Source: a bacterium
GTDB lineage: Bacteria > SAR324 > JACQKK01
Direction: 5' to 3'
Length of the DNA: 64,000 nucleotides
NCBI GenBank assembly: GCA_965240465.1
Contig: OZ251219.1
Span: 864,001 to 928,000 of the forward strand
The notes under the pieces were generated by a model. The model was not told the origin of the DNA. It ran no database searches and saw only the letters and a program-made list of their open reading frames with translations. A program made the position numbers and the translations under genes. Of the stretch, positions 7,551 through 19,903 are shown piece by piece. Each line of letters starts with the position of its first letter. Positions within the stretch are counted from its first letter, which is position 1.

Positions 7551-9278
7551 CTAAGGCGTAGTGGGAGGGGGACACTGAACGAAGTCTTCTTCGGGTAATT
7601 GCCCACAGAGTAATTTGCCCTTAGCTTTTAGAGTGGGGTAGAAGCCAGCGGTGAACTGCCAGTTCTTGGCACTCCAGCCTGTAGTGCGGGTATTTAAGGC
7701 TTTTAGTTGGCGGCTGGGTTTGCCTTTAGCCTGGGCGTTTTTAAGGGTTAACACGGTCTCACCATTTTTCAATGGACTAGTACTATTATAATAGTTGCTG
7801 GTAATTGTAATTCTCCCAGTACCTTTTTTGCCAAGCAAGCGACCCACATGATCCATACCAGCACCCCCATCAACAATACCTAAGGAATAACTGTTAGCGA
7901 TAGTCCCAGAATCAATAAATCCCACCAAGCCACCCACATCGTCATCACCATCACGGACACCGGCACCATCGCCAGTGGCATCGCCAGTGGCATAGCTGTT
8001 CTGGATCGTGCCACTATTCACACCTACCAAGCCACCCACATAGTCATCACTTTCACCGCCAAGAACAAATCCAGTGGCATAGCTGTTCTGGATCGTGCCA
8101 TCATTTAAACCTACCAAGCCACCCACAAAGTCCCTACCATCACCGAAAGAAATAACAGAGCCAGTGGCATAGCTATTACTGATGGTGCCTTTATTTTCAC
8201 CTACCAAGCCACCCACAGAGTCATGGATACCAGCACCACCATTGGCATAGCCAGTGGCAGAGCTATTACTGATGGTGGCATCACTACTATTACGACCTAC
8301 CAAGCCACCCACATATCTACCGCCAGTGGCAGAGCCAGTGGCATAACTATCTTGGATGGTGCCTTTGTAATTAGCACCCACCAAGCCACCCACATTGTCA
8401 TCACCATCACCGCCAGTGGCATCGCCAGTGGCATAACTATTACCGATGGTGCCATAATTCCCACCTACCAAGCCACCCACAGAGGAACTGCCAGTGGCAT
8501 CGCCAGTGGCATAGCTATTACTGATGGTGCCAAAATTTAAACCTACCAAGCCACCCACACTATCATAACCACCATCACCACCAGCAACAAAAAAGCCAGT
8601 GAAATAACTATCACCGCCATCGGCATAGCTATCTTGGATGGTACCGCCATTACTACCTACCAAGCCACCTACTAAGTCATAGTAACCTCCGCTGGCAGAA
8701 ACTGAGAACCCAGTAACAGAAACACCCGATATTGTTCCATTATTTATGCCTGCCAGAACCCCTACATGGTTACGTTCGTCACTAGTACCATTAGTGTATC
8801 TAGTAGCAACTGAACCTGTTGCAAAGGACAAATTTTGGACTTTACTACCAGAAGCTAAGGATGTAAAGAAGCCAGTGTACTTGGTAACATTGTCAATGGT
8901 TAAGTTGCGGATGGTTTTGCCATTGCCTTCTAAGGTAGAGGTAAAATCCCCAGCAATTGGGACCCAGTTTCTAATGGAAGCTAGGCTAATATCATCCGCT
9001 AGTTCGTAGCCCTTGCAACCTCTCTTGATAGGACAACCCTTATTGGATGGATTACCTGTCCTGTCATTATAGTGGCTACCGTCCAAATCATAGCGGATGT
9101 TATTGAGCTCGGCAGCATTGTGAAGCTCTATTAGACCGTCATTGTCGTCATCTACATCAACGGAGTTAGGAATGCCATCACTGTCTTTATCAACATTGAT
9201 AATGCTACTGATAATACTACAGCTGCCTAAAAAAAGAGTAAGAACAAAGCTGGCTAAGAGTAGCGATAATCTCTTCAC
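7551..9278 (-). CDS. GLUG-repeat lipoprotein, paralog 1
   Basis: Likely GTG start at 9278 (GGAGG upstream) giving (M)KRLSLL...FLGSC lipobox; DDDNDGLIE..ELNNIRY..GCP..CKGYEL domain; repeated VGGLVG..SYATG; C-terminal LLCGQLPEEDFVQC. Confidence 0.85.
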   Translation of the reverse strand: MKRLSLLLASFVLTLFLGSCSIISSIINVDKDSDGIPNSVDVDDDNDGLIELHNAAELNNIRYDLDGSHYNDRTGNPSNKGCPIKRGCKGYELADDISLASIRNWVPIAGDFTSTLEGNGKTIRNLTIDNVTKYTGFFTSLASGSKVQNLSFATGSVATRYTNGTSDERNHVGVLAGINNGTISGVSVTGFSVSASGGYYDLVGGLVGSNGGTIQDSYADGGDSYFTGFFVAGGDGGYDSVGGLVGLNFGTISNSYATGDATGSSSVGGLVGGNYGTIGNSYATGDATGGDGDDNVGGLVGANYKGTIQDSYATGSATGGRYVGGLVGRNSSDATISNSSATGYANGGAGIHDSVGGLVGENKGTISNSYATGSVISFGDGRDFVGGLVGLNDGTIQNSYATGFVLGGESDDYVGGLVGVNSGTIQNSYATGDATGDGAGVRDGDDDVGGLVGFIDSGTIANSYSLGIVDGGAGMDHVGRLLGKKGTGRITITSNYYNSTSPLKNGETVLTLKNAQAKGKPSRQLKALNTRTTGWSAKNWQFTAGFYPTLKAKGKLLCGQLPEEDFVQCPPPTTP

Positions 9279-9343
9279 GCGAAATACCTCCATTAGCTTT
9301 CCAAAAGGGCTTTCCCAGAACACAGGAACAAGCAACATCGCCC

Positions 9344-9372
9344 ACGCTAACCCTAGTAGGTGGCGTTGTCAA
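9344..9372 (-). promoter_or_regulatory. sigma70-like promoter of paralog 1
   Basis: TTGACA-17 nt-TAGCGT on minus strand. Confidence 0.55.
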
Positions 9373-9419
9373 ATTTCTCGGGCAAAAAGCCTGAGGAAAG
9401 TAAGAGAAAATGGAGGGGA

Positions 9420-10997
9420 CTACGGACACTGAACGAAGTCAGCTGCACGCTGCCCGCAGAGCAGAGTGCCTGGGATTTGGATAGGATTGCCATCGGCGTC
9501 AGTACCTTCTGTCTGGTAGGATTTCAGGCTGGGGTATTTGCCGTTAGTGAAATCCCAATTTTTAGTGTCCCAGCCCGTGCCAAAGTCAGTTTTGGTGTTA
9601 TTGGCGGTCAAGGCTTTTAAGCTACTGCTGTTTTTGCCTAGTGCTTCTCTAGCTGTAAGGGGTGTGATGGTTTCGCCATTTAAGGCACTAGCACTATTAT
9701 AATAGTTGCTGGTAAATATAATACTTGAAAAACCATGTTGGGTGCCAAGCAAGCGACCAACTTCATCGCTACCACTCCCCCCATTCACATTGCCTAAGGC
9801 ATAACTGTTATCGAGGCTCATATAACCATGTTGAGAATTTGAAATCTCTCCCACTAAGCCACCCACAGAGTCATTACCAGCACCGCCTTTGGCATCACCA
9901 GTGGCATAGCTATTACCGATGATGCCCTCATAACTATAACCCACTAAGCCACCCACAGAGTCATTACCAGCACCGCCTTTGGCATAGCCAGTGGCATAGC
10001 TATTACCGATGGTGCCAATAAAATGATTACCTACTAAGCCACCCACAGAGTCATTACCAGCACCGCCTTTGGCATAGCCAGTGGCATAGCTATTACCGAT
10101 GGTGCCATAATTATTAAAACCTACCAAGCCACCCGCAGCGTCTGCACCAGCATCGCCATTGGCATTGCCAGTGGCATAACTATTACCGATGGTGCCAACA
10201 TTATAACCTACCAAGCCACCCACCCTATCATAATGACCAGCACCGCCTTTGGCATTGCCAGTGGCATAACTATCTTGGATGATACCACCATCATAAAAAT
10301 GCGACCCATTATAACCTACCAAGCCACCTACTGAGTCATTTTCACCTGTGCTAGCAAAAACCGATAAATCCGAAGAAACACCCGATATTGTTCCAATATT
10401 TCTACCTGCCAGAACCCCTACACAGTTGGGATAATCTGTACTACCACTATTGTTGCTACTGGCAACTGAACCTGTTGCAAAGGACAAGTTTCTGACTGTG
10501 CTACTCGTACCCAAAACCGCAAAGAATCCCGTGTATAGGGTGGAATCGGTGGCAATTTTTAGGTTACTGATGGTGTAATCATTACCTTCAAAGGTAGCCG
10601 TGAAAGGATTGCCTAATTGTCCAATGGGAACAAAGTTGGTAATGGAAGAGAGATTAATGTTGTCGGCTAGTTCGTAGCCATTACAACCAGAGCTAGGACA
10701 GCCCGTACTAGATGGAGCATTCGTGCCATCATTATAACTAGTGCCTGCCAAATTATGTCGGATGTTGTTTAGCTCGGTAGCATTGTGAATCTCTATTAGA
10801 CCATTGCCGTCTTTGTCGGCAGCAGATCTACCACCCTCCCCGATGTTGTTTAGCTCGGTAGCATTGTGAATCTCTATTAGACCATTGCCGTCTTTGTCGG
10901 CAGCAGATCTACCACCCCCGATGCTGCTAACCCCGCCACAGCTGGCTAAAAGCAAAGCAATAACAAAACTGATTGATAGTAGCGATAATTTTTTCAT
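9420..10997 (-). CDS. GLUG-repeat lipoprotein, paralog 2
   Basis: MKKLSLL...LLASC; duplicated 26-aa GGRSAADKDGNGLIEIHNATELNNI block; GLUG repeats; LLCGQRAADFVQCP. Confidence 0.87.
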   Translation of the reverse strand: MKKLSLLSISFVIALLLASCGGVSSIGGGRSAADKDGNGLIEIHNATELNNIGEGGRSAADKDGNGLIEIHNATELNNIRHNLAGTSYNDGTNAPSSTGCPSSGCNGYELADNINLSSITNFVPIGQLGNPFTATFEGNDYTISNLKIATDSTLYTGFFAVLGTSSTVRNLSFATGSVASSNNSGSTDYPNCVGVLAGRNIGTISGVSSDLSVFASTGENDSVGGLVGYNGSHFYDGGIIQDSYATGNAKGGAGHYDRVGGLVGYNVGTIGNSYATGNANGDAGADAAGGLVGFNNYGTIGNSYATGYAKGGAGNDSVGGLVGNHFIGTIGNSYATGYAKGGAGNDSVGGLVGYSYEGIIGNSYATGDAKGGAGNDSVGGLVGEISNSQHGYMSLDNSYALGNVNGGSGSDEVGRLLGTQHGFSSIIFTSNYYNSASALNGETITPLTAREALGKNSSSLKALTANNTKTDFGTGWDTKNWDFTNGKYPSLKSYQTEGTDADGNPIQIPGTLLCGQRAADFVQCP

Positions 10998-11063
10998 CGG
11001 TAATCCTCCAATATAGATATGAAAGACTAGGGCATTCCTCAGCTTTGAGAAATCGCCAATCTT

Positions 11064-11092
11064 ACCATAGCAAGCATAGGTGGCGTTGTCAA
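11064..11092 (-). promoter_or_regulatory. sigma70-like promoter of paralog 2
   Basis: TTGACA-17 nt-TATGGT with extended -10 TG. Confidence 0.6.
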
Positions 11093-11142
11093 GTTATTTT
11101 TTTTCATGCCATCTGACATGCCTTTAAGAGCAGGGTGATAAA

Positions 11143-11162
11143 GGGAGTGAGTACTCACTCCC
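11143..11162 (-). terminator. Terminator-like palindrome downstream of paralog 3
   Basis: Perfect palindrome GGGAGTGAGTACTCACTCCC, short U-tract. Confidence 0.6.
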
Positions 11163-11206
11163 AGAAAAATGCTCGGCTACCTTTTTTAAGCAGTCGGGGG
11201 GCTAGC

Positions 11207-12646
11207 CTAAGGCGTACACTGAACGAAGTCTGCTTTGGGTAATTGCCCACAGAGTATTTTTCCAGTAACTTGTTCACCACTGGAATTCTCTTTGTAAGAC
11301 TTCAGGCTGGGGTATTTGCCGTTAGTGAAATCCCAATTAAATTCACTCCAGCCATTACCAGTGAATTCAGTTTCGGTGTTACTGACATTCAAGCTTTTTA
11401 AGCCACCGCTGGTTTTGCCAACCGCCTCGGCGGCTGGAAGGGTTAGTGTGGTTTCGCCATCTAAGTTACTCCCGCTATTATAATAGTTGCTGGTGGCGTT
11501 ACCACTGCTTTTTACGCCAATCAAGCGGCCTATCTTATCGTCTCCAGTCCCTCCATCAACAGCTCCTAAGGAATAACTATTATTGATAGATACACCATCA
11601 AAATATCCCACCAAGCCGCCTATTTTGTCATCACCAGCACCGCCATCAGCAGTACCTGAATAATAACTGTTTCGGATGGTACCAAGAGAACGTCCCACCA
11701 AGCCGCCAACCTCGTCATTACCCCCTTGGCCGTTAACCTCACCAGTGCTGTAGCTGTTCTGGATAACGCCCTGAAGATATCCCGCCAAGCCACCAATAAA
11801 GTTCGGACCGTTATTGCCGTTAACATTACCAGTGCTATAGCTGTTTTGGATAACACCACTATTATTAATACTAACGTCTTGGTAACCACTGCCTATTAAG
11901 CCACCTACCATTGTGTTATCATTACCAGTAGCAGATACCGGCAAGTTTGAAGAAACATTGTCTATAAATCCACTATTCCGGCCTGCTAGAGAACCTACAT
12001 GGTCAACTCCTCCATAACTGGCAACCGAACTAGAGGTACTAGATAGGTTAAGATTTCTTACCGTGCCATTTTTACCTATATAACTAAATAAGCCTACAGA
12101 AAGTTGATTACTATTGATATTCAAGTTAAGTATGCTAAAGCCATTGCCTTCAAAAACAGTCTGAAATCTGACGAATCTACTCTGAGCAACATTGCCAATG
12201 GGTTCCCAATCTGATTGTGAAGCCATATCAATGTCATTGAGTAGCTCATGACCGATGCAACCTCGAGCAGGACAACCCACATCAGAGGCTACATTATTAA
12301 TATAATCTTTGATATCACTGCCGTCGTACAGGTAGTAACGAACCTCGTTTAGTTCCTTGTAAGTGGTAATATCTCTAAGACCGTTGTTGTTATCATCAAC
12401 ATCTTCCGTATCATTTTTGCCATCGTTGTCATCATCGGTGTCTTCGCCAGCATCCTCGCAACCGTCGCCATCAAAGTCAGTGATGGGGGTGCTAGTGAAA
12501 GACTCAGGGCTATCTGGGCATACTGTATCTTGGTCGTTAGGTATGCCGTCACCATCTTTGTCGGTACTTTCATCCTCTTTATCGCCACAGCTGGCTAAAA
12601 GTAAAACAATAACAAAACTGATTGATAGTAACGATAATTTTTTCAT
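11207..12646 (-). CDS. GLUG-repeat lipoprotein, paralog 3
   Basis: ATG 12646 MKKLSLL...LLASC; DxDGDG Ca-binding repeats; GLUG repeats; ILCGQLPKADFVQCTP. Confidence 0.87.
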   Translation of the reverse strand: MKKLSLLSISFVIVLLLASCGDKEDESTDKDGDGIPNDQDTVCPDSPESFTSTPITDFDGDGCEDAGEDTDDDNDGKNDTEDVDDNNNGLRDITTYKELNEVRYYLYDGSDIKDYINNVASDVGCPARGCIGHELLNDIDMASQSDWEPIGNVAQSRFVRFQTVFEGNGFSILNLNINSNQLSVGLFSYIGKNGTVRNLNLSSTSSSVASYGGVDHVGSLAGRNSGFIDNVSSNLPVSATGNDNTMVGGLIGSGYQDVSINNSGVIQNSYSTGNVNGNNGPNFIGGLAGYLQGVIQNSYSTGEVNGQGGNDEVGGLVGRSLGTIRNSYYSGTADGGAGDDKIGGLVGYFDGVSINNSYSLGAVDGGTGDDKIGRLIGVKSSGNATSNYYNSGSNLDGETTLTLPAAEAVGKTSGGLKSLNVSNTETEFTGNGWSEFNWDFTNGKYPSLKSYKENSSGEQVTGKILCGQLPKADFVQCTP

Positions 12647-12869
12647 AATAGACACCTCTACGAGATTTCTAAAAAATCCCAGGATCTAAAAAATCCCAGA
12701 ACACAATAATAAGCAAGATAACTCCATGCTAACTCATAGAGGGGGACTTCGTCAAGCTCAGGTAGTTGGGGGGGGGCAGGGTGATGGGGTGATGCAGGGT
12801 GATGGAGAAATCAAGGTGAGGGGGGAGAGGGTTTTTTTTGGGGGGGGGGTGGGTTTTTGGGGGGGGGTA

Positions 12870-13532
12870 GAATGAAAGAGGCTTGGTGAGGAATGTCATC
12901 GCTTGCTCCATTATTCTCAAAAATCCTCACCCTGAGATGATGGCACGGTCCTCCCGCGAAGTCTTACGGTTTGCAATGACGACCTCAGCTTCGCTAGTGG
13001 CTACCGAAAGGATGCCACTAAGTGAACCGAGACTTACGTTCGCTTTCGCTCTGGCAATGCAAACTAGCAATGCAAACTGGCAATTAATTAAAATTGCTCA
13101 GTCCCAGCTCGGTACTAGGCGTGAAATTATACCTTGGAAAAAGTACTAAAAGTACTCACCAAAACAGAAACGGCGTTCCACGACCTTCGGAGCTATTAAA
13201 CTCCCGCCAGTGTTTCTGCGACTGCTTGATCCGCGTTTTAATCCCTTAATGGCAGGAATCTAGGACTTGCCTAGGTTCTACTCATTTGCGGAGGGGAGAA
13301 GAGATTTCGGTGCAATCTACCTCCTCATCTTCCTCGTCATTTGCGTGTGCCAAAACATATGCCAAAAAGCAAACAAAGGACACACATGATCCACCCTTCG
13401 GTATGAACGGAACCTCAGGCGGTCACTACCCACCAATCCCCTTTCATTCGTTATCTAAAACCCTTAGCGAACCTATCCTTACCAGCCTAGGTTTGGCATA
13501 ACTGCAGTTTGGATCACTAAAAATGTTTTGAT
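12870..13532 (-). ncRNA. Candidate large structured ncRNA (~580-660 nt), family not assigned
   Basis: Dedicated promoter at 13539-13567; 21-bp long-range stem (13429-13449 with 12870-12890; 18 WC, 2 G-U, 1 mismatch on minus strand); nested 8-bp stem 13412-13419/12931-12938; several local hairpins; no credible ORF. Confidence 0.65.
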
Positions 13533-13538
13533 AATGTG

Positions 13539-13567
13539 AGTGTAGGGTATCGCGATCGGTTTGTCAA
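13539..13567 (-). promoter_or_regulatory. sigma70 promoter pointing into the non-coding element
   Basis: TTGACA (13567-13562)-17 nt-TACACT (13544-13539), just downstream of paralog 4's terminator. Confidence 0.7.
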
Positions 13568-13596
13568 GTGCTGAAAAGAGATTAGTTGTCCCCCCA

Positions 13597-13630
13597 GAAA
13601 GAAAAAGGGAGTGAGTATTAACTCACTCCC
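13597..13630 (-). terminator. Intrinsic terminator of paralog 4
   Basis: GGGAGTGAGT-4 nt-ACTCACTCCC hairpin followed by TTTTTCTTT on minus strand. Confidence 0.8.
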
Positions 13631-13676
13631 AAAATGGTCTGCTCTATTTTTCAAGCAGTCGGGGGGGGGGTCTAGC

Positions 13677-14948
13677 CTAGTTTGTAGTACACTGAACGAA
13701 GTCGGTGGGTTGGTTACAGAGTAGATCACCTGCGATTTGGGCATTGCTAGCATTCACCTTGAAGGATTTCAGGCTGAGGTATTTGTCAGCGGTGAAATCC
13801 CAGTTTAATGCCTTAAAGCCTGTACCATTAACAAACTCAGTTGCAGTTGCAACTGTTACAGATGCATCTGCAAGTTCATCGCCACCTGCCGCCACTGCTT
13901 TTAGTTCAGTGCCGCTCTTTCCAATGGCCCCGTTTACCCCTGTAAAGGCCAATGAAACATCGGTGCCAGTGGAATCGGCAACCAGTTTGTCGGTAGTGCT
14001 GTCAAAGTAGTTACCAGTAACTGTAACATCCGAAGCTGCTACTTTGCCAATAAAGAGGCTAACTAAATCATCTCCAGCACCACCATCAACGGTACCCAAG
14101 AAGGAGAAGCTGTTCGTGACTGTTCCACTAACAAGTTCTCCAAGCAAGCCGCCTATCTGGTCAACTCCAGCACCGCCAACAACATTGCCAGTGGCAAAAG
14201 TATTTTGGATGGTACCAGAGGTATTTTTACCTACCAAGCCGCCTACAGAGTTAGCCGCAGCACCGCCAGTAACACTGACACTGGCAAAGCTATTTTGGAT
14301 GGTACCACCATTACCATTATAGCCCACCAAGCCACCTAAGGAAGAAGCATTGCCAGTTACAGAACCGACAGCGGTAGTAGCAGTAGCAGAGCTATTTTCT
14401 ACGGTACCGGTATTATTACCTACCAAAACACCTACGGTGCTATTAGCAGCAGTACTAGTACTGGAAACCGTGGCCCCAACAATACTTAGATTTTTTATCG
14501 TTCCAGATGAGTCGGCGAAGAAACCGGTGTTTACGGAGTCACCACCAATTACCAGGCCAGTGATTTCCTTGTTACCGCCATCAAAGATACCTGTGAAACC
14601 TACAATGGAGGCAAAGTTGCTGGTATCACCTGTGAAGGCAATGTCATTGTCTAGTTCATAGCCTTTGCAAGTTGCTTTTTTGGCAGTTCCTGTACCAATT
14701 TCAGGGCAACCAGAAGCATCGCCTTCACCTGTTGCACTTGTTTTATAGCTAGTACCATCCAAGTTGTTCTTGATGTTTTTCAGCTGGGCAATAGTGCTAA
14801 TATCTATTAGACCATTGCCATCATCATCAGCATCAACTTTTTTGGTTGTTGCCTTAGTGGTAGATTTCTTGTCGTCACCACTGCCACAGCCTGCTAACAC
14901 AAGAGCAAAAGCGACCAAGAATAGTGATAATAGTGATAATTTTTTCAT
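13677..14948 (-). CDS. GLUG-repeat lipoprotein, paralog 4 (shortest intact, divergent)
   Basis: MKKLSLL...VLAGC; GLIDI..QLKNI..GCP..CKGYEL; few GLUG repeats; LLCNQPTDFVQCTTN. Confidence 0.87.
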   Translation of the reverse strand: MKKLSLLSLFLVAFALVLAGCGSGDDKKSTTKATTKKVDADDDGNGLIDISTIAQLKNIKNNLDGTSYKTSATGEGDASGCPEIGTGTAKKATCKGYELDNDIAFTGDTSNFASIVGFTGIFDGGNKEITGLVIGGDSVNTGFFADSSGTIKNLSIVGATVSSTSTAANSTVGVLVGNNTGTVENSSATATTAVGSVTGNASSLGGLVGYNGNGGTIQNSFASVSVTGGAAANSVGGLVGKNTSGTIQNTFATGNVVGGAGVDQIGGLLGELVSGTVTNSFSFLGTVDGGAGDDLVSLFIGKVAASDVTVTGNYFDSTTDKLVADSTGTDVSLAFTGVNGAIGKSGTELKAVAAGGDELADASVTVATATEFVNGTGFKALNWDFTADKYLSLKSFKVNASNAQIAGDLLCNQPTDFVQCTTN

Positions 14949-14971
14949 TTTAAGCCCTTTTCAACTTAATG

Positions 14972-15323
14972 TTATAAATTACTTGCTACAAAAACGTAGC
15001 CTCAGGGTGATAAGACACCTAAGCTTCGGTTGTATAGGACAATTTGAGCTAGTGTCAAGTCTTTTTATTCAGATATTTGCTTTAATCTAAGATTATAAAA
15101 TTACTTGCCACAAAAACGTAGCCTTAGGTGATAAGACACCTCAGCTTCGGTTGTATAGGACAATTTGAGCTAGTGTCAAGTCTTTTTATTCAGATATTTG
15201 CTTTAATCTAAGATTATAAAATTACTTGCCACAAAAACGTAGCCTCAGGGTGATAAGACACCTCAGCTTCGGTTGTATAGGACAATTTGAGCTAGTGTCA
15301 AGTTTTTTTATTCAGATATTTGC
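14972..15323. repeat. 121-bp tandem triplication of the paralog 4 upstream region
   Basis: Near-identical units start at 14972, 15093, 15214; each has TTGACA on the minus strand (TGTCAA at 15053, 15174, 15296). Confidence 0.95.
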
Positions 15324-17645
15324 CTAAGGCGTGGTACACTGAACGAAGTCAGCTACGGGTAATTGCCCACAGAGTAGATTGCCCATATCGGCATCCTCTT
15401 CGTAAGACTTCAGGGTGGGATAGAAGCCAGCAGTGAAATTCCAGTTGAATTCATTCCAGCCGTTGTTGTCGCCTTCAAAGTCAGTTTCGGTGATGTCGGC
15501 AGTCAAGGCTTTTAGTTTGGCGCTGGTTCTGCCAAGCCCCTCGGCGGCGGTATAGGTTAATACGCTCTCAGCACCCTCAAATCTACCCCCACTATTATAG
15601 TAGTTGCCGGCAAGTGTAGTATCAGCATCTTCTTCTGGTTCCCTCCCGCCGATCAAGTAGCCAACATAGTCATCACTACCAGCACCCCCATCAACATCGC
15701 CTAAGAAATAACTATTATTGATGCTTCCAGAAGCAATATATCCCACCAAGCCACCTACAAAGTCATCACTCGCATCTCCAGTAGCATTACCAGTGGCATA
15801 GCTGTCTTGGATGATGTTGAAATTAGTACCCGCCAAACCACCCACAGCAATACCGCCAATAGCATTGCCAGTGGCATAGCTATTTTGGATGTTACCATCA
15901 GCACTATTGGTACCTACCAAACCACCCACGTGGTCAGTTCCATCACCTCCAGCAGTAACACCTCCACCAGTAACCTTGCCAGTGGCAGAGCTGCTTTGAA
16001 TGATGTCAAAATTACGACCCACCAAGCCACCTACAAAGTCATTATTCGCACCTCCATCAACCTTGCCAGTAGCAGAGCTGTCTTGGATCATGCTGTAATT
16101 ATCACCCACTAAGCCACCTACACGGTCATCACCAGCATTGCCAGCAGCATTGCCAGCAGCAGAGCTGTCTTGGATGATGTTGAAATTAGCACCCACCAAG
16201 CCACCTACATAGTCATCACTCGCATCTCCAGTAGCATTACCAGTGGCATAGCTGTCTTGGATGATGTTGAAATTAGTACCCGCCAAACCACCCACAACAA
16301 TACCGCCAATAGCATTGCCAGTGGCATAGCTATTTTGGATGTTACCATCAGCACTATTGGTACCTACCAAACCACCCACGTGGTCAGTTCCATCACCTCC
16401 ATCAGTAGTACCTCCACCAGTAACCTTGCCAGTGGCAGAGCTGCTTTGAATGATGTCAAAATTACGACCCACCAAGCCACCTACAAAGTCATTATTCGCA
16501 CCTCCATCAACCTTGCCAGTAGCAGAGCTATTTTTAATGGTGCTAATATTACCACCCACTAAGCCACCTACACGGTCATCACCAGCATTGCCAGCAGCAT
16601 TGCCAGCAGCAGAGCTGTCTTGGATCATGCTGTAATTAACACCCACCAAACCACCCACAAAGTCATAATCACCAGCACCACCAAAAACATTGCCAGTGGC
16701 AGAGCTGTCTTGGATTATGTTGTAATTACCACCCACCAAGCCACCTACATAGTCATAATCACCACCGACGGCAGTAACCGAGATCCCCGTAATAGAAACA
16801 TCGGATATAAATCCATCATTGGCGGCGGCTAGAACCCCTACATAGTTGGGACTGTTTTGAATGCCATTAACATAGTTACTGGTAACTGAACCTGTTGCAA
16901 AGGATAAGTTCCGTACCGTGCTATTAGCAGTCAAGTGTATAAATAAGCCCGCGTCTTTGGTGTTAGCGTCAGTGACAATGATTAGGTTGCTGATGGTGTT
17001 GTCATTGCCTTCTAAGATAGCGCTAAAACCACCCATAATGGGTTCAAAGCTGATGGATAGCAAGTCAATGTTATTGACTAATTCATAGCCCTTGCAAACA
17101 GGACCTGAACCTATGTCTGACTTTGGACAGCCTACATTATAGCCTACATTACTGGGGCTGCCATCCAGGCTGTAGCGGATATTGTTTAGCTCGGTAGCAG
17201 TGGCAATCTCTATCAGACCGTCATTATCATCATCCACGTCCACTGCATCGCCAAATCCATCGCTATCAGTATCGGTATCATCGCTACCATTGCCATCATC
17301 ATCGTCGTCTTCATTTTGGTCTCGACAGCCATCAGAATCGTAGTCGTTGATATATTTAACGCTGATAAAACTTATGAGGCTTTTTTGGCAACCATCAACA
17401 CCATCTTCTATGCCATCATTGTCGTCATCGGTGTCTTCGCCGTCATCTTTGCAACCGTCTCCATCGTAGTCGTTTTCGGGGGTACTGACGAATTTCTTAT
17501 AAGCACTAGGGGAGCATTGGTCTACAGTATCAAGGACGCCATCGCCATCGGTATCAGCAGGCTTGGAACTGCCAGTACCGCCTCCGCAGCTGGCTAAAAA
17601 TAGAGCAAAAATACAAGCTGAAATTAAGGATAATCTGTCCATCAA
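15324..17645 (-). CDS. GLUG-repeat lipoprotein, paralog 5
   Basis: MDRLSLI...FLASC; DYDGDGC repeats; ~450-bp internal duplication in the GLUG region; LLCGQLPVADFVQCTTP. Confidence 0.87.
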   Translation of the reverse strand: MMDRLSLISACIFALFLASCGGGTGSSKPADTDGDGVLDTVDQCSPSAYKKFVSTPENDYDGDGCKDDGEDTDDDNDGIEDGVDGCQKSLISFISVKYINDYDSDGCRDQNEDDDDDGNGSDDTDTDSDGFGDAVDVDDDNDGLIEIATATELNNIRYSLDGSPSNVGYNVGCPKSDIGSGPVCKGYELVNNIDLLSISFEPIMGGFSAILEGNDNTISNLIIVTDANTKDAGLFIHLTANSTVRNLSFATGSVTSNYVNGIQNSPNYVGVLAAANDGFISDVSITGISVTAVGGDYDYVGGLVGGNYNIIQDSSATGNVFGGAGDYDFVGGLVGVNYSMIQDSSAAGNAAGNAGDDRVGGLVGGNISTIKNSSATGKVDGGANNDFVGGLVGRNFDIIQSSSATGKVTGGGTTDGGDGTDHVGGLVGTNSADGNIQNSYATGNAIGGIVVGGLAGTNFNIIQDSYATGNATGDASDDYVGGLVGANFNIIQDSSAAGNAAGNAGDDRVGGLVGDNYSMIQDSSATGKVDGGANNDFVGGLVGRNFDIIQSSSATGKVTGGGVTAGGDGTDHVGGLVGTNSADGNIQNSYATGNAIGGIAVGGLAGTNFNIIQDSYATGNATGDASDDFVGGLVGYIASGSINNSYFLGDVDGGAGSDDYVGYLIGGREPEEDADTTLAGNYYNSGGRFEGAESVLTYTAAEGLGRTSAKLKALTADITETDFEGDNNGWNEFNWNFTAGFYPTLKSYEEDADMGNLLCGQLPVADFVQCTTP

Positions 17646-17836
17646 AAGTTTTTCAATTTAATCTTTTGTGAAATATTGGCTAAAAAGTATTGCCAAGCCC
17701 AACCAGCACCCTACCCACATGAGTATGCTATTTAACTCCTTGTCAAGCTTTTTTTTTTGATGAGACGATATTTTTTTAAGTGCCGAGTTTAGATAGGTTG
17801 TATTTCACAGAAGCGGGCAATCAGTCGGGGTCTAGC

Positions 17837-19903
17837 CTAAGGTGTGAGACACTGAACGAAGTCGGTGGGTTGGTTACAGAGTAACTTGCCATGAATTTGG
17901 GCATTATTGGAATTCTCCTGATAGGATTTCAGGCTGGGGTATTGGCTTGTTGAACCAAAATCCCAATTTTTGGCACTCCAGCCGTTTGTAAAGTCAGCTT
18001 CGGTGATGGCAGCAGTCAAGTTTTTTAGGTCGGTGCTGGTTTTGCTTTTAACATTGTCGTCGCTAAGGTTTAATACGTTCCCATTATTCAACTGGCTATT
18101 ACTATTATAATAGTTGCTGGTAATTGTAATTGTCCCAGTCCCAGCACCTTTTTTGCCAAGTAAAACCCCCACTTCATCGGTTCCTTCGTCCCCATCCACA
18201 TTGCCTAAGGAATAACTGTTCTGGATGATTGTTACATAAAAATGCTCATCATTATCAATATATCCCAGCAAGCCACCTACAACGTCATTTTCGGTACCGC
18301 CAGCAACATTGCCAGTGGCATAGACATTTTGGATGATGCTGTTGCTGACAGATCCTGCCAAACCACCTACCTTGTCATCACCAGCACCTCCAGTAGCTTT
18401 GCCAGTGGCATAGACATTTTTGATGATGTTGTTGCTGACAGATCCTGCCAAACCACCTACCTGATCATCACCAGCACCTCCAGTAGCTTTGCCAGTGGCA
18501 GAGCTGTTTTGGATGGTACTAAAATTACCACCCACCAAGCTACCTACAACGTCATTTCCGGTACCGCCATCAACATCGCCAGTGGCATAGCTGTCTTTGA
18601 CGGTGCCAAGTGAAATACCAACACCTACCAAGCCACCTACCTGGTCATCACCAGCACCTCCAGTAGCTTTGCCAGTGGCAAAGCTGCTTTGGATGGTACT
18701 AAAATTACCACCCACCAAGCTACCTACAACGTCACTATCACCTTTACCACCATCAACATTGCCAGTAGCAGAGCTGTTTTGGATGGCACCGAAATTAATC
18801 CCTACCAAACCACCTACAACGTCACTATCACCTTTACCGCCTGTAACGACAGTAGTAACAGCAGAGCTATTTTCGATGGTGCCAGTATTATTACTCACCA
18901 AGCCACCCAGTTTATCATGATCATCATAACCGCCAGTAACAGAGCTATTAGTGATAGAGCTATCTTGGATAATGTTCAAATTATCACCTACCAAGCCACC
19001 TACATAATTAGACATACCAGCACCGCCAGTAACAGAGCTATTAGTGATAGAGCTATTTTCGATGATGCCAGTAACACCATTATAACCCACCAAGCTACCT
19101 ACATAGTCATAATTACCACCGCCGGCAATAACCGAGATCCCCGTAGTAGAAACATTGGATATTGTTCCCATATTACCGGCAGATAGGACCCCTAAATAGT
19201 TGGCACTTTTTGAAGTGCCGCCAGTATAGCCACTGGTAACTGAACATGTTGCAAAGTACAGGTTCCGTACCGTGCTACCAGCAGCCAAGAATATAAATAA
19301 GCCCGCGTCTTTGGTGCTAGCGTCAGCGACAATGACTAGGTTGCTGATGGTTTTATTATTGCCTTCTAAGGTAGCGGTAAAATCACCAGCGATAGGCACC
19401 CAGTTTCTGGTATCAGGAGCAGTTGGAGCGTCTAAGATAATGTCCCTGACTAGTTCATAGCCACTACAAGCTGGACCTGAACCTGTGTCTAGACAGCCTG
19501 CATTAGAGCCTTGATCACTGGCACCTTCTTTATAGAGGCTGCCGTCCAGGCTGTAGCGGATATTGTTTAGCTTCTCAGCAGTGGTAATCTCTATCAGACC
19601 GTTATTATCATCATCCACGTCCACTGCATCGCCAAATCCATCGGTATCAACATCGGTATCGGGGTTACCATCGCCATCATCATCGGAGTCTTCATCTTGG
19701 TCTCGACAGCCATCAGAATCGTAGTCGGTGCTACCATCACTGATGAAGCCTCTGGGGCTGTTGGGGCACTTATCTACCAGATCGGTGATGCCGTCGCCAT
19801 CGGCATCATTAGTTCCGCTACTGCCACTATTATTGCCACAGCTGGTTAAGAAAACAGCAAAAATACATACTGAAGTTAAGAATAATTTGTTCATAAGCGA
19901 CAC
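17837..19903 (-). CDS. GLUG-repeat lipoprotein, paralog 6
   Basis: MNKLFL...FLTSC; same domain order; LLCNQPTDFVQCLTP. Confidence 0.87.
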   Translation of the reverse strand: MSLMNKLFLTSVCIFAVFLTSCGNNSGSSGTNDADGDGITDLVDKCPNSPRGFISDGSTDYDSDGCRDQDEDSDDDGDGNPDTDVDTDGFGDAVDVDDDNNGLIEITTAEKLNNIRYSLDGSLYKEGASDQGSNAGCLDTGSGPACSGYELVRDIILDAPTAPDTRNWVPIAGDFTATLEGNNKTISNLVIVADASTKDAGLFIFLAAGSTVRNLYFATCSVTSGYTGGTSKSANYLGVLSAGNMGTISNVSTTGISVIAGGGNYDYVGSLVGYNGVTGIIENSSITNSSVTGGAGMSNYVGGLVGDNLNIIQDSSITNSSVTGGYDDHDKLGGLVSNNTGTIENSSAVTTVVTGGKGDSDVVGGLVGINFGAIQNSSATGNVDGGKGDSDVVGSLVGGNFSTIQSSFATGKATGGAGDDQVGGLVGVGISLGTVKDSYATGDVDGGTGNDVVGSLVGGNFSTIQNSSATGKATGGAGDDQVGGLAGSVSNNIIKNVYATGKATGGAGDDKVGGLAGSVSNSIIQNVYATGNVAGGTENDVVGGLLGYIDNDEHFYVTIIQNSYSLGNVDGDEGTDEVGVLLGKKGAGTGTITITSNYYNSNSQLNNGNVLNLSDDNVKSKTSTDLKNLTAAITEADFTNGWSAKNWDFGSTSQYPSLKSYQENSNNAQIHGKLLCNQPTDFVQCLTP

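Follow-up and report, generated by a model that had tools for sequence, protein, structure and literature searches.

What occupies the gap of about 1 kb that is enclosed by two GLUG-motif lipoprotein genes (13677-14948 and 11207-12655, both on the minus strand) in the genome of a SAR324 bacterium? The locus lies in the window, that is, the whole stretch of 64,000 nucleotides analysed here, which corresponds to positions 864001-928000 of a single-contig 1.6-Mb genome and to which all coordinates refer unless a genome position is given. Both flanking genes match the Pfam Glug model (E 2e-10 and 2.4e-9). An initial annotation had described the gap as the only large one in a lipoprotein gene array and had proposed that its minus strand encodes, under a promoter of its own, a large, ornately structured noncoding RNA (ncRNA), which would be a remote member of the OLE, ROOL or GOLLD RNAs or else a new class. 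The first of these statements holds for the range that was compared, 8000-19000, in which 12655-13677 is the largest gap between open reading frames. As for the ncRNA, we hold with high confidence that the locus belongs to a real family of structured RNA genes, of which seven copies have been found in this genome. The fuller statement, namely that a structured ncRNA of about 663 nt is expressed from its own sigma-70 promoter, belongs to a seven-member family and acts in trans as a scaffold, is the one that we favour on balance, with appreciable doubt.

Seven copies and their promoter

The putative transcription unit begins shortly after the preceding lipoprotein gene, whose canonical terminator lies at 13630-13607 and is followed, 40 nt further on, by the promoter of the RNA on the minus strand. 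The near-consensus promoter described in the initial annotation (TTGACA-17-TACACT) was recovered by a promoter scan with 10 of 12 matching positions; the region holds six promoter-like sites in all, compared with 1.7±1.5 in shuffled sequences. The -35 hexamer TTGACA (13562..13567, minus strand) is part of an extended motif, ACTTGACAAAC, and the -10 hexamer TACACT (13539..13544, minus strand) stands 17 nt past it. The same combination of ACTTGACAAAC, a 17-nt spacer and a TAnnnT -10 box is present in all seven copies, the -10 box of the other copies reading TATACT, TACGAT or TAGATT. Genome-wide, 23 TTGACAAAC sites were counted, seven of which are the promoters of the RNA copies. The start of the RNA is placed near 13532 from the position of the -10 box, and its 3' end at the end of the closing stem, where the homology between copies stops, so that the predicted RNA measures about 663 nt (12870..13532, minus strand), both ends being deduced in this way.

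A DNA search of the 1.6-Mb genome revealed five long copies, namely the window locus, used as reference (c1), c2 (genome 716071-716785, 97% identity to c1), c3 (genome 347951-348627, 95%), c4 (genome 530651-531361, 74%) and c5 (genome 1210646-1211344, 69%). Two short copies, c6 (genome, near 1328586) and c7 (genome, near 1572150), were recognised by a covariance model, R1, built from 135 nt of the long copies only, with 33 and 26 bits, respectively, and their scores climbed to 80 and 76 bits once both had been included in the model. A weak eighth match inside uvrB (12.4 bits, E 0.05) was discarded as noise before the alignment A4 and the model R2 were built. In c4 and c5 the homology is limited to window 13572-12868, where it opens with the -35 box and stops at the final nucleotide of the 3' arm of P1, the closing stem; c1, c2 and c3 also resemble one another in their flanks, since each is embedded in a segmental duplicate of the lipoprotein arrays.

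Counted between the inferred start and the 3' limit of the closing stem, c1-c5 measure 635-673 nt, c6 467 nt and c7 339 nt. The short copies keep the promoter, the closing stem, the hairpins P2, P3 and P5 and the invariant blocks, and are devoid of an internal domain of about 330 nt found in the long forms; c6 is longer than c7 because a 16-nt tandem repeat expands its leader. About ten units of this repeat, GCATTAGAACATGCAA, are found between the promoter and the closing stem of c6 (genome ~1328330-1328560). Tandem repeats are present inside c2 as well: a 13-nt unit, CTGGCAATGCAAA, occurs twice in c1 (window 13051-13076), has at least one extra unit in c2 (L008, ~1960-2010) and is missing from c3, along with the hairpin that contains it. 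The peripheral RNA helix that carries this unit is apparently being remodelled by replication slippage.

The predicted fold

The predicted RNA contains the stem that had been described as a 21-bp helix closing about 580 nt. Its arms were found again as 26-nt segments, 12870-12895 and 13424-13449, that are 81% complementary, and the fold agrees with that description: the stem has 20 pairs, two of them G·U, and a single A·G mismatch, at -29.9 kcal/mol. This stem, P1, has its 5' arm (GAAUGAAAGGGGAUUGGUGGG) at 13429..13449 and its 3' arm (CUCACCAAGCCUCUUUCAUUC), with a U-rich 3' end, at 12870..12890, both on the minus strand, and it forms in all seven copies with energies of -20.6 to -30.8 kcal/mol. 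In a plain MAFFT alignment of the P1-bounded domain of the seven copies (A5), 98.4% of the P1 cells are paired, compared with only 41-56% in slid controls; three pairs are compensated, six show one-sided G·U exchanges, and matched deletions affect both arms in c5 and c6.

Covariation extends to the helices inside P1. In the 5' core, which comprises 40 pairs in the alignment A4 of the seven copies, 96.6% of the cells pair and 16 of the 40 pairs show two-sided changes, compared with 5.6±1.8 in shuffles, none of 500 of which reaches 16, and with two to five pairs when the partners are slid by 1-3 columns; these figures are counts and not probabilities, because the model guided the alignment and the copies are paralogues of one another. 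By helix, the two-sided changes concern all seven pairs of P3 and five of the ten pairs of P2. The RNAalifold consensus of the five long copies contains 191 pairs, 21 of them compensated. For the comparison of individual helices, the MAFFT settings were chosen by consensus folding energy, and the variable domain of c4 remains partly misaligned.

The minus strand of the 581-nt domain folds at -202.8 kcal/mol (z -4.7), a value reached by none of 100 dinucleotide shuffles, and the short forms fold as P1-closed multi-helix junctions with z values of -6.2 and -4.6. As both strands of the domain beat their shuffles, energy alone cannot pick the strand. The predicted sense-strand structures contain 140 G·U cells and 14 A·C cells, a count biased by the strand used for the prediction, and the consensus folding energy is -287.7 for the sense strand versus -251.7 for the reverse-complemented alignment. 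Both the pairing asymmetry and the consensus energy favour the promoter strand, and the promoters of all seven copies point the same way.

Following the minus strand from its 5' end, the model opens with a leader hairpin of about 85 nt, P0 (13451..13534), in which AAACUGCAG is invariant among the long forms and double changes occur at alignment columns 51/124, 67/110, 71/109 and 83/98 (P0 spans columns 45-131). Past the 5' arm of P1 come the co-varying hairpin P2 (13386..13426), with an invariant UGAGGUUC in its loop, and P3 (13345..13385), variable in both sequence and length. The 5' strand of P4 (GCAAAUGACGA, 13334..13344) pairs with its 3' strand (UCGUCAUUGC) at 12973..12982, and in the five long copies this helix is invariant or shows one-sided changes only. 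The next hairpin, P5 (13297..13333), carries the blocks GAGGAGGU, UGCACCG and AAUCUCUU, invariant in all seven copies. The domain restricted to the long forms (12983..13293, ~310-330 nt) is made of several hairpins within P4 and is absent from c6 and c7, while the 3' junction region (12891..12972) holds GCAAGC (12901-12906), invariant except in c7, where it reads GCGAGC. Judging from the two short forms, the domain of about 330 nt is an optional module; these forms thereby delimit a minimal core of about 250 nt and provide a natural dissection of the RNA.

The inner helices proposed in the initial annotation fared unequally. CAGAAAC/GUUUCUG, UAGUGGC/GCCACUA, GGAGU/GCUCC and AGUACU/AGUACU are retained in both c4 and c5, with some two-sided changes, the last of them becoming GAGUACC/GGGUGCUU in c5. 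ACCGAG/CUCGGU, too, is kept, being identical in c5 and replaced by AUCAAG/CUUGGU in c4 (read by eye, the script columns being misaligned in c4). Two further hairpins turned out to be variable peripheral elements: GCAAUU/AAUUGC exists in c1-c3 and not elsewhere, and CUAGG/CCUAG is deleted in c5, as read from the alignment rows. A long-range helix between CCUGAGGU and AUCUCAGG is not supported, as only five of its eight pairs form in c4 and c5 and a local hairpin competes with it. Concerning the two candidate pseudoknots, the pairing of 13492-13500 with 13358-13366, which would join UAUGCCA of the leader to UGGCAUA of P3, is kept in c4 (-10.8 kcal/mol) and lost in c5 (-3.4 kcal/mol), while that of 13510-13516 with 13387-13393 is not conserved (-4.6 and -1.6 kcal/mol), and its 3' partner sits in a co-varying stem.

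Coding potential, known families and distribution

No ATG frame of at least 25 amino acids is shared by c1, c4, c5, c6 and c7 on either strand, and one- and two-base indels within the most conserved block separate the long from the short forms; the unit is therefore regarded as non-coding. The same observations bear on the idea that the locus encodes a type I toxin messenger RNA (mRNA), like those of hok/sok or AapA/IsoA, in which folding back of the 5' end on the 3' end would lock the translation of a small toxic peptide. Fold-back pairing between the two ends is a hok/sok-like feature. The occurrence of several chromosomal copies, each under a promoter of its own and closed by a long-range 5'-3' stem, would be in line with it, and so would the Shine-Dalgarno-like sequence buried in structure. 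However, no small hydrophobic frame is conserved on either strand, frame-breaking indels occur in the conserved core, no antisense promoter was noted in the promoter scan, and 663 nt is well above the size of type I toxin mRNAs, which usually remain well below it, so that this explanation appears scarcely probable.

A scan of the whole window with Rfam 15 gave no match at the gathering score; at E<=10, the region 12700-13700 yielded only six chance matches to microRNA, small nucleolar RNA and small-RNA families, all with E>=2, and at E<=1 none was obtained for the c4-c7 loci. The models of OLE, ROOL, GOLLD, HEARO, RNase P, transfer-messenger RNA (tmRNA) and introns all fail in these scans. The proposal of a remote member of OLE, ROOL or GOLLD thus falls, for want of an Rfam match to any of them, and that of a new class remains; the seven copies, the covariation and the missing reading frame support a large, ornate minus-strand ncRNA with its own promoter. 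Three domains were searched for in the genome, with control genomes giving matches in each case: reverse transcriptase (RVT_1, PF00078), the TnpB-type domain (PF07282; IscB-specific domains were not searched) and TROVE (PF05731, Ro/Rsr) are all absent, which rules out retron-type, omega and Y RNAs. A sponge of the CsrB/RsmZ type was also rejected, the long copies having 13-18 GGA motifs each versus about 11-12±3 in shuffles and the short copies fewer than the shuffle means.

The resemblance to OLE, ROOL and GOLLD is one of general architecture, since the RNA is in the same size class (~600-800 nt), has many helices, forms a transcription unit of its own (predicted here), is non-coding and, as holds for them, is not linked to any known catalytic function. 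It differs from them by the lack of a match to any Rfam model, by its SAR324 host and by its occurrence as diverged paralogues that include short forms without the optional domain. OLE adjoins oap genes, and ROOL and GOLLD are found in prophages near transfer RNA (tRNA) genes; in contrast to the latter two, ARAGORN detects no tRNA or tmRNA gene in 12000-14500, and no DNA match was obtained in phage records, nor in plasmid records. In having multiple diverged paralogues in one genome, all of them under conserved individual promoters, the family recalls Qrr1-5 and LhrC1-5, which are base-pairing small RNAs of about 100 nt, whereas the RNA described here is 3-6 times larger. Nothing related was found in the literature on SAR324 noncoding RNA, and what was retrieved on large ornate RNAs consisted of reviews and structure papers only. 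The seven copies are an apparently new sequence family among large structured RNAs, and their organisation as a multigene family with an optional domain is unusual.

Outside this genome the family was not recovered. The DNA search of 60 relatives gave no real match (one 33-nt match in G043, E 2.5e-4, was taken as chance), the model R1 found no copy in 150 relatives, the same-genus genome among them, and the model R2 none in 87 other genomes of the phylum. In a single-contig genome of the same genus (G001), whose orthologous proteins are only 56-73% identical, there was no match at E<=10 or at E<=5 and no ACTTGACAAAC site; the positions after the orthologues of the helicase and the glutathione-reductase-like genes have no gap and no RNA (best score 6.8 bits), and a hutH query found no orthologue. 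A strict pattern with 23 specified bases had no match in genome contigs or in metagenome contigs, and two patterns had none in viral contigs. A looser pattern gave 38 metagenome and 16 genome loci, which is about the chance expectation; all 54 remain at or below 19.7 bits with R2 (filters off), mostly over the pattern alone, and one of them, L053, was unrelated when read. Distant relatives could be missed because pattern searches need exact matches to the invariant blocks. The family is apparently restricted to this lineage and, among the genomes searched, found in this one only.

Such a distribution raises the question whether the unit might be a selfish or neutral transcribed intergenic repeat, spread by duplication and recombination, with a palindrome-driven fold and no cellular function. 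ERIC, BOX and Correia elements are simple palindromes of 100-250 bp that end at inverted repeats and occur in tens to hundreds of copies, and the likeness is real: the RNA family, too, is lineage-specific, multi-copy and intergenic, folds strongly as RNA and comes in modular versions, long or short. Furthermore, segmental duplications of the lipoprotein arrays carry three of the copies along, remnants mark the loss of the RNA from most array units, and the orthologous sites of the sister genome have no such gap. On the other side, the unit is 340-670 nt long, has a branched fold with invariant loops, and starts at a conserved promoter outside the inverted repeat, about 120 nt upstream of it; this promoter is intact in all seven copies, and its decayed versions occur only at sites that have lost the RNA. 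Covariation is seen in several independent inner helices, the invariant loops are still present at 69% identity or below, and the G·U asymmetry points to selection on RNA and not on DNA. A miniature inverted-repeat transposable element (MITE) was rejected on related grounds, as the inverted repeat is internal, with its 5' arm about 120 nt inside the conserved unit; by eye, no target-site duplications flank the P1 arms or the unit ends, and no partner element carries the arms, 11 of the 14 one-mismatch matches to the P1 arm motif lying in the copies and the other three being isolated single sites. We therefore consider a repeat of this kind unlikely, and a functional RNA gene family remains the preferred interpretation.

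The lipoprotein arrays and candidate roles

The genome contains 54 GLUG-paralogue loci in 12 clusters, which cover about 143 kb, or 9% of the 1.6 Mb, a very large investment in one surface-protein family. Copies c1-c4 lie at most 0.5 kb from the nearest of these clusters, c7 2.7 kb, c6 14 kb and c5 38 kb. Could the unit be a long cis-acting 5' leader, or "expression site", of a downstream phase-variable GLUG lipoprotein gene? The four copies within 0.5 kb of a paralogue cluster would suggest so, and c1 and c3 are followed, after C-tracts, by a lipoprotein gene on the same strand. Nevertheless, c2, c4 and c5 each face a convergent gene downstream, and therefore the RNA is not a 5' leader; c5 and c6 are remote from any paralogue, and the downstream gene in the window has a promoter-like site of its own (12755-12726). 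Moreover, when c1-c3 are counted as one event, two of five copies adjoin clusters that cover about 10% of the genome, for which we estimate a binomial probability (at least two of five) of about 0.08, and the association with the arrays is therefore not significant. A cis-acting leader is thus highly unlikely, and the position of the RNA inside a lipoprotein array may be incidental.

The history of the arrays is nonetheless partly readable in their spacers. Eight array spacers without the RNA keep about 27 nt of its promoter region in a decayed state, with TTGATA or TTGGTA and no -10 box; the remnant motif is AGCACTTGATAAAC..ATCGCCAAT, and the lipoprotein gene's own TTGACA promoter comes directly next. 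These remnants lie on the plus strand at genome positions 329282, 332796, 345926, 704595 and 710541 and on the minus strand at 902628, 905676 and 908440 (window 38628, 41676 and 44440). As the promoter is intact with the RNA and degenerate without it, the pattern is read as a loss of the RNA from most array units, and it suggests that the array repeat unit originally included the RNA gene, which most units then lost by deletion. The same contrast between intact and decayed promoters provides indirect evidence that promoter and RNA have been selected together.

On the other side of the RNA gene, a C-rich, G-poor tract (12766..12867, minus strand) begins just 3' of the closing stem, with runs of 9-10 C in the sense strand and 59 C versus 3 G in the first 100 nt. 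This tract may serve to load Rho, or it may be phase-variable. Seen on the plus strand, runs of 9-10 G occur on both sides of the RNA gene, in window 12766-12867 and at 13660-13669, and their lengths vary among c1, c2 and c3, which fits slippage-prone and possibly phase-variable tracts. The downstream lipoprotein gene has, in its 5' untranslated region, a perfect 15-nt direct repeat (TCTAAAAAATCCCAG, window 12668-12699), whose two units are 17 nt apart and which overlaps a terminator-like hairpin.

Concerning the mode of action, the RNA would be transcribed as a stand-alone molecule from its own sigma-70 promoter. Its transcription would probably end at or just after P1, a proposal made because the upper part of this stem is GC-rich and is followed by CUUUCAUUC/U; the stretch of 100 nt past P1, C-rich and G-poor in five of the seven copies (c1-c3 not being independent), could load Rho. 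The product would be a stable folded RNA that functions in trans and scaffolds either a protein partner or an RNA-only assembly, in the manner of the known large ornate RNAs of bacteria; its invariant loops would be the contact surfaces. One study describes OLE, ROOL and GOLLD as all forming homo-oligomeric RNA assemblies (PMC12286853). Such assemblies are, by analogy, a plausible model for how the present RNA might work.

The ribosome is a candidate contact, since GAGGAGGU in P5 is complementary over 8 nt to the anti-Shine-Dalgarno tail of 16S ribosomal RNA, which we take to have the usual sequence in this host. A different function could be built on the same pairing, namely a translation decoy or regulator that docks on or sequesters the 30S subunit, or drives the synthesis of a very short peptide from a UUG or CUG located 3-5 nt downstream. 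In all copies this codon is followed by CAC CGN AAU CUC UU(C/U), with three variable bases that are synonymous as judged by eye, and in the predicted folds the invariant GAGGAGGU falls partly within an internal loop of P5. The peptide past HRNLF, however, varies in sequence and in length (~11 to 31 residues, by eye), the P5 stem accounts for the conserved block equally well, in the long forms only some 4 nt separate GGAGG from the start codon, GAGGAGGT is not distinctive, with 75 occurrences in the genome, and the 16S tail of the organism is an assumed one. A decoy of this type therefore seems quite unlikely, and a trans-acting scaffold remains the favoured function.

Several points weigh against the scaffold RNA family favoured here and should be considered together. 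The alignment A4, fitted to the model, favours pairing, and all the covariation comes from paralogues, seven sequences of which about five are effectively distinct. The plus strand folds better than its shuffles to an equal degree (z -5.3), and no canonical terminator was found past P1 in the scan of the window region. The family occurs in a single genome, and its absence from the genome of the same genus is as compatible with a dispensable or selfish element as with a functional RNA that evolves fast. A search for sequencing runs that contain this DNA returned two contig sets, from one sample and one study, and no RNA run; the contigs are short and broken at the repeats. Finally, the start, the end, the abundance and the very transcription of the RNA are deduced from DNA sequence, and the trans-acting scaffold role and the contact with the ribosome are conjecture.

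To our knowledge, fewer than about ten classes of bacterial ncRNA longer than 500 nt with a complex conserved structure have been described, and every one of them that we know of has proved to be a ribozyme, the core of a ribonucleoprotein or, recently, a self-assembling RNA cage. A tentative proposal, to which we give slightly less than an even chance, is that this multigene family of seven, with its optional domain of about 330 nt, represents a new class of large functional RNA, either a ribozyme or a scaffold for a ribonucleoprotein or an RNA-only assembly, kept in a reduced genome for a lineage-specific process that may be linked to the ribosome or to the variable surface lipoproteins. Seven paralogues in a genome of 1.6 Mb imply either a strong demand for the RNA or a selfish spread. 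A further class of large RNA would be a concrete target for work on structure and function, a value limited by the fact that the family is known from one uncultured genome and that its expression and function are at most predicted.

A last observation concerns the surroundings of c5 (genome region 1208196-1213260), which sits between a gene for a UvrD-like helicase and a convergent AAA_15 gene. The latter has a weak Toprim match, below the cut-off, and is OLD-nuclease-like; the pair of neighbours is reminiscent of the Gabija defence genes, although here the two genes are not in one operon.

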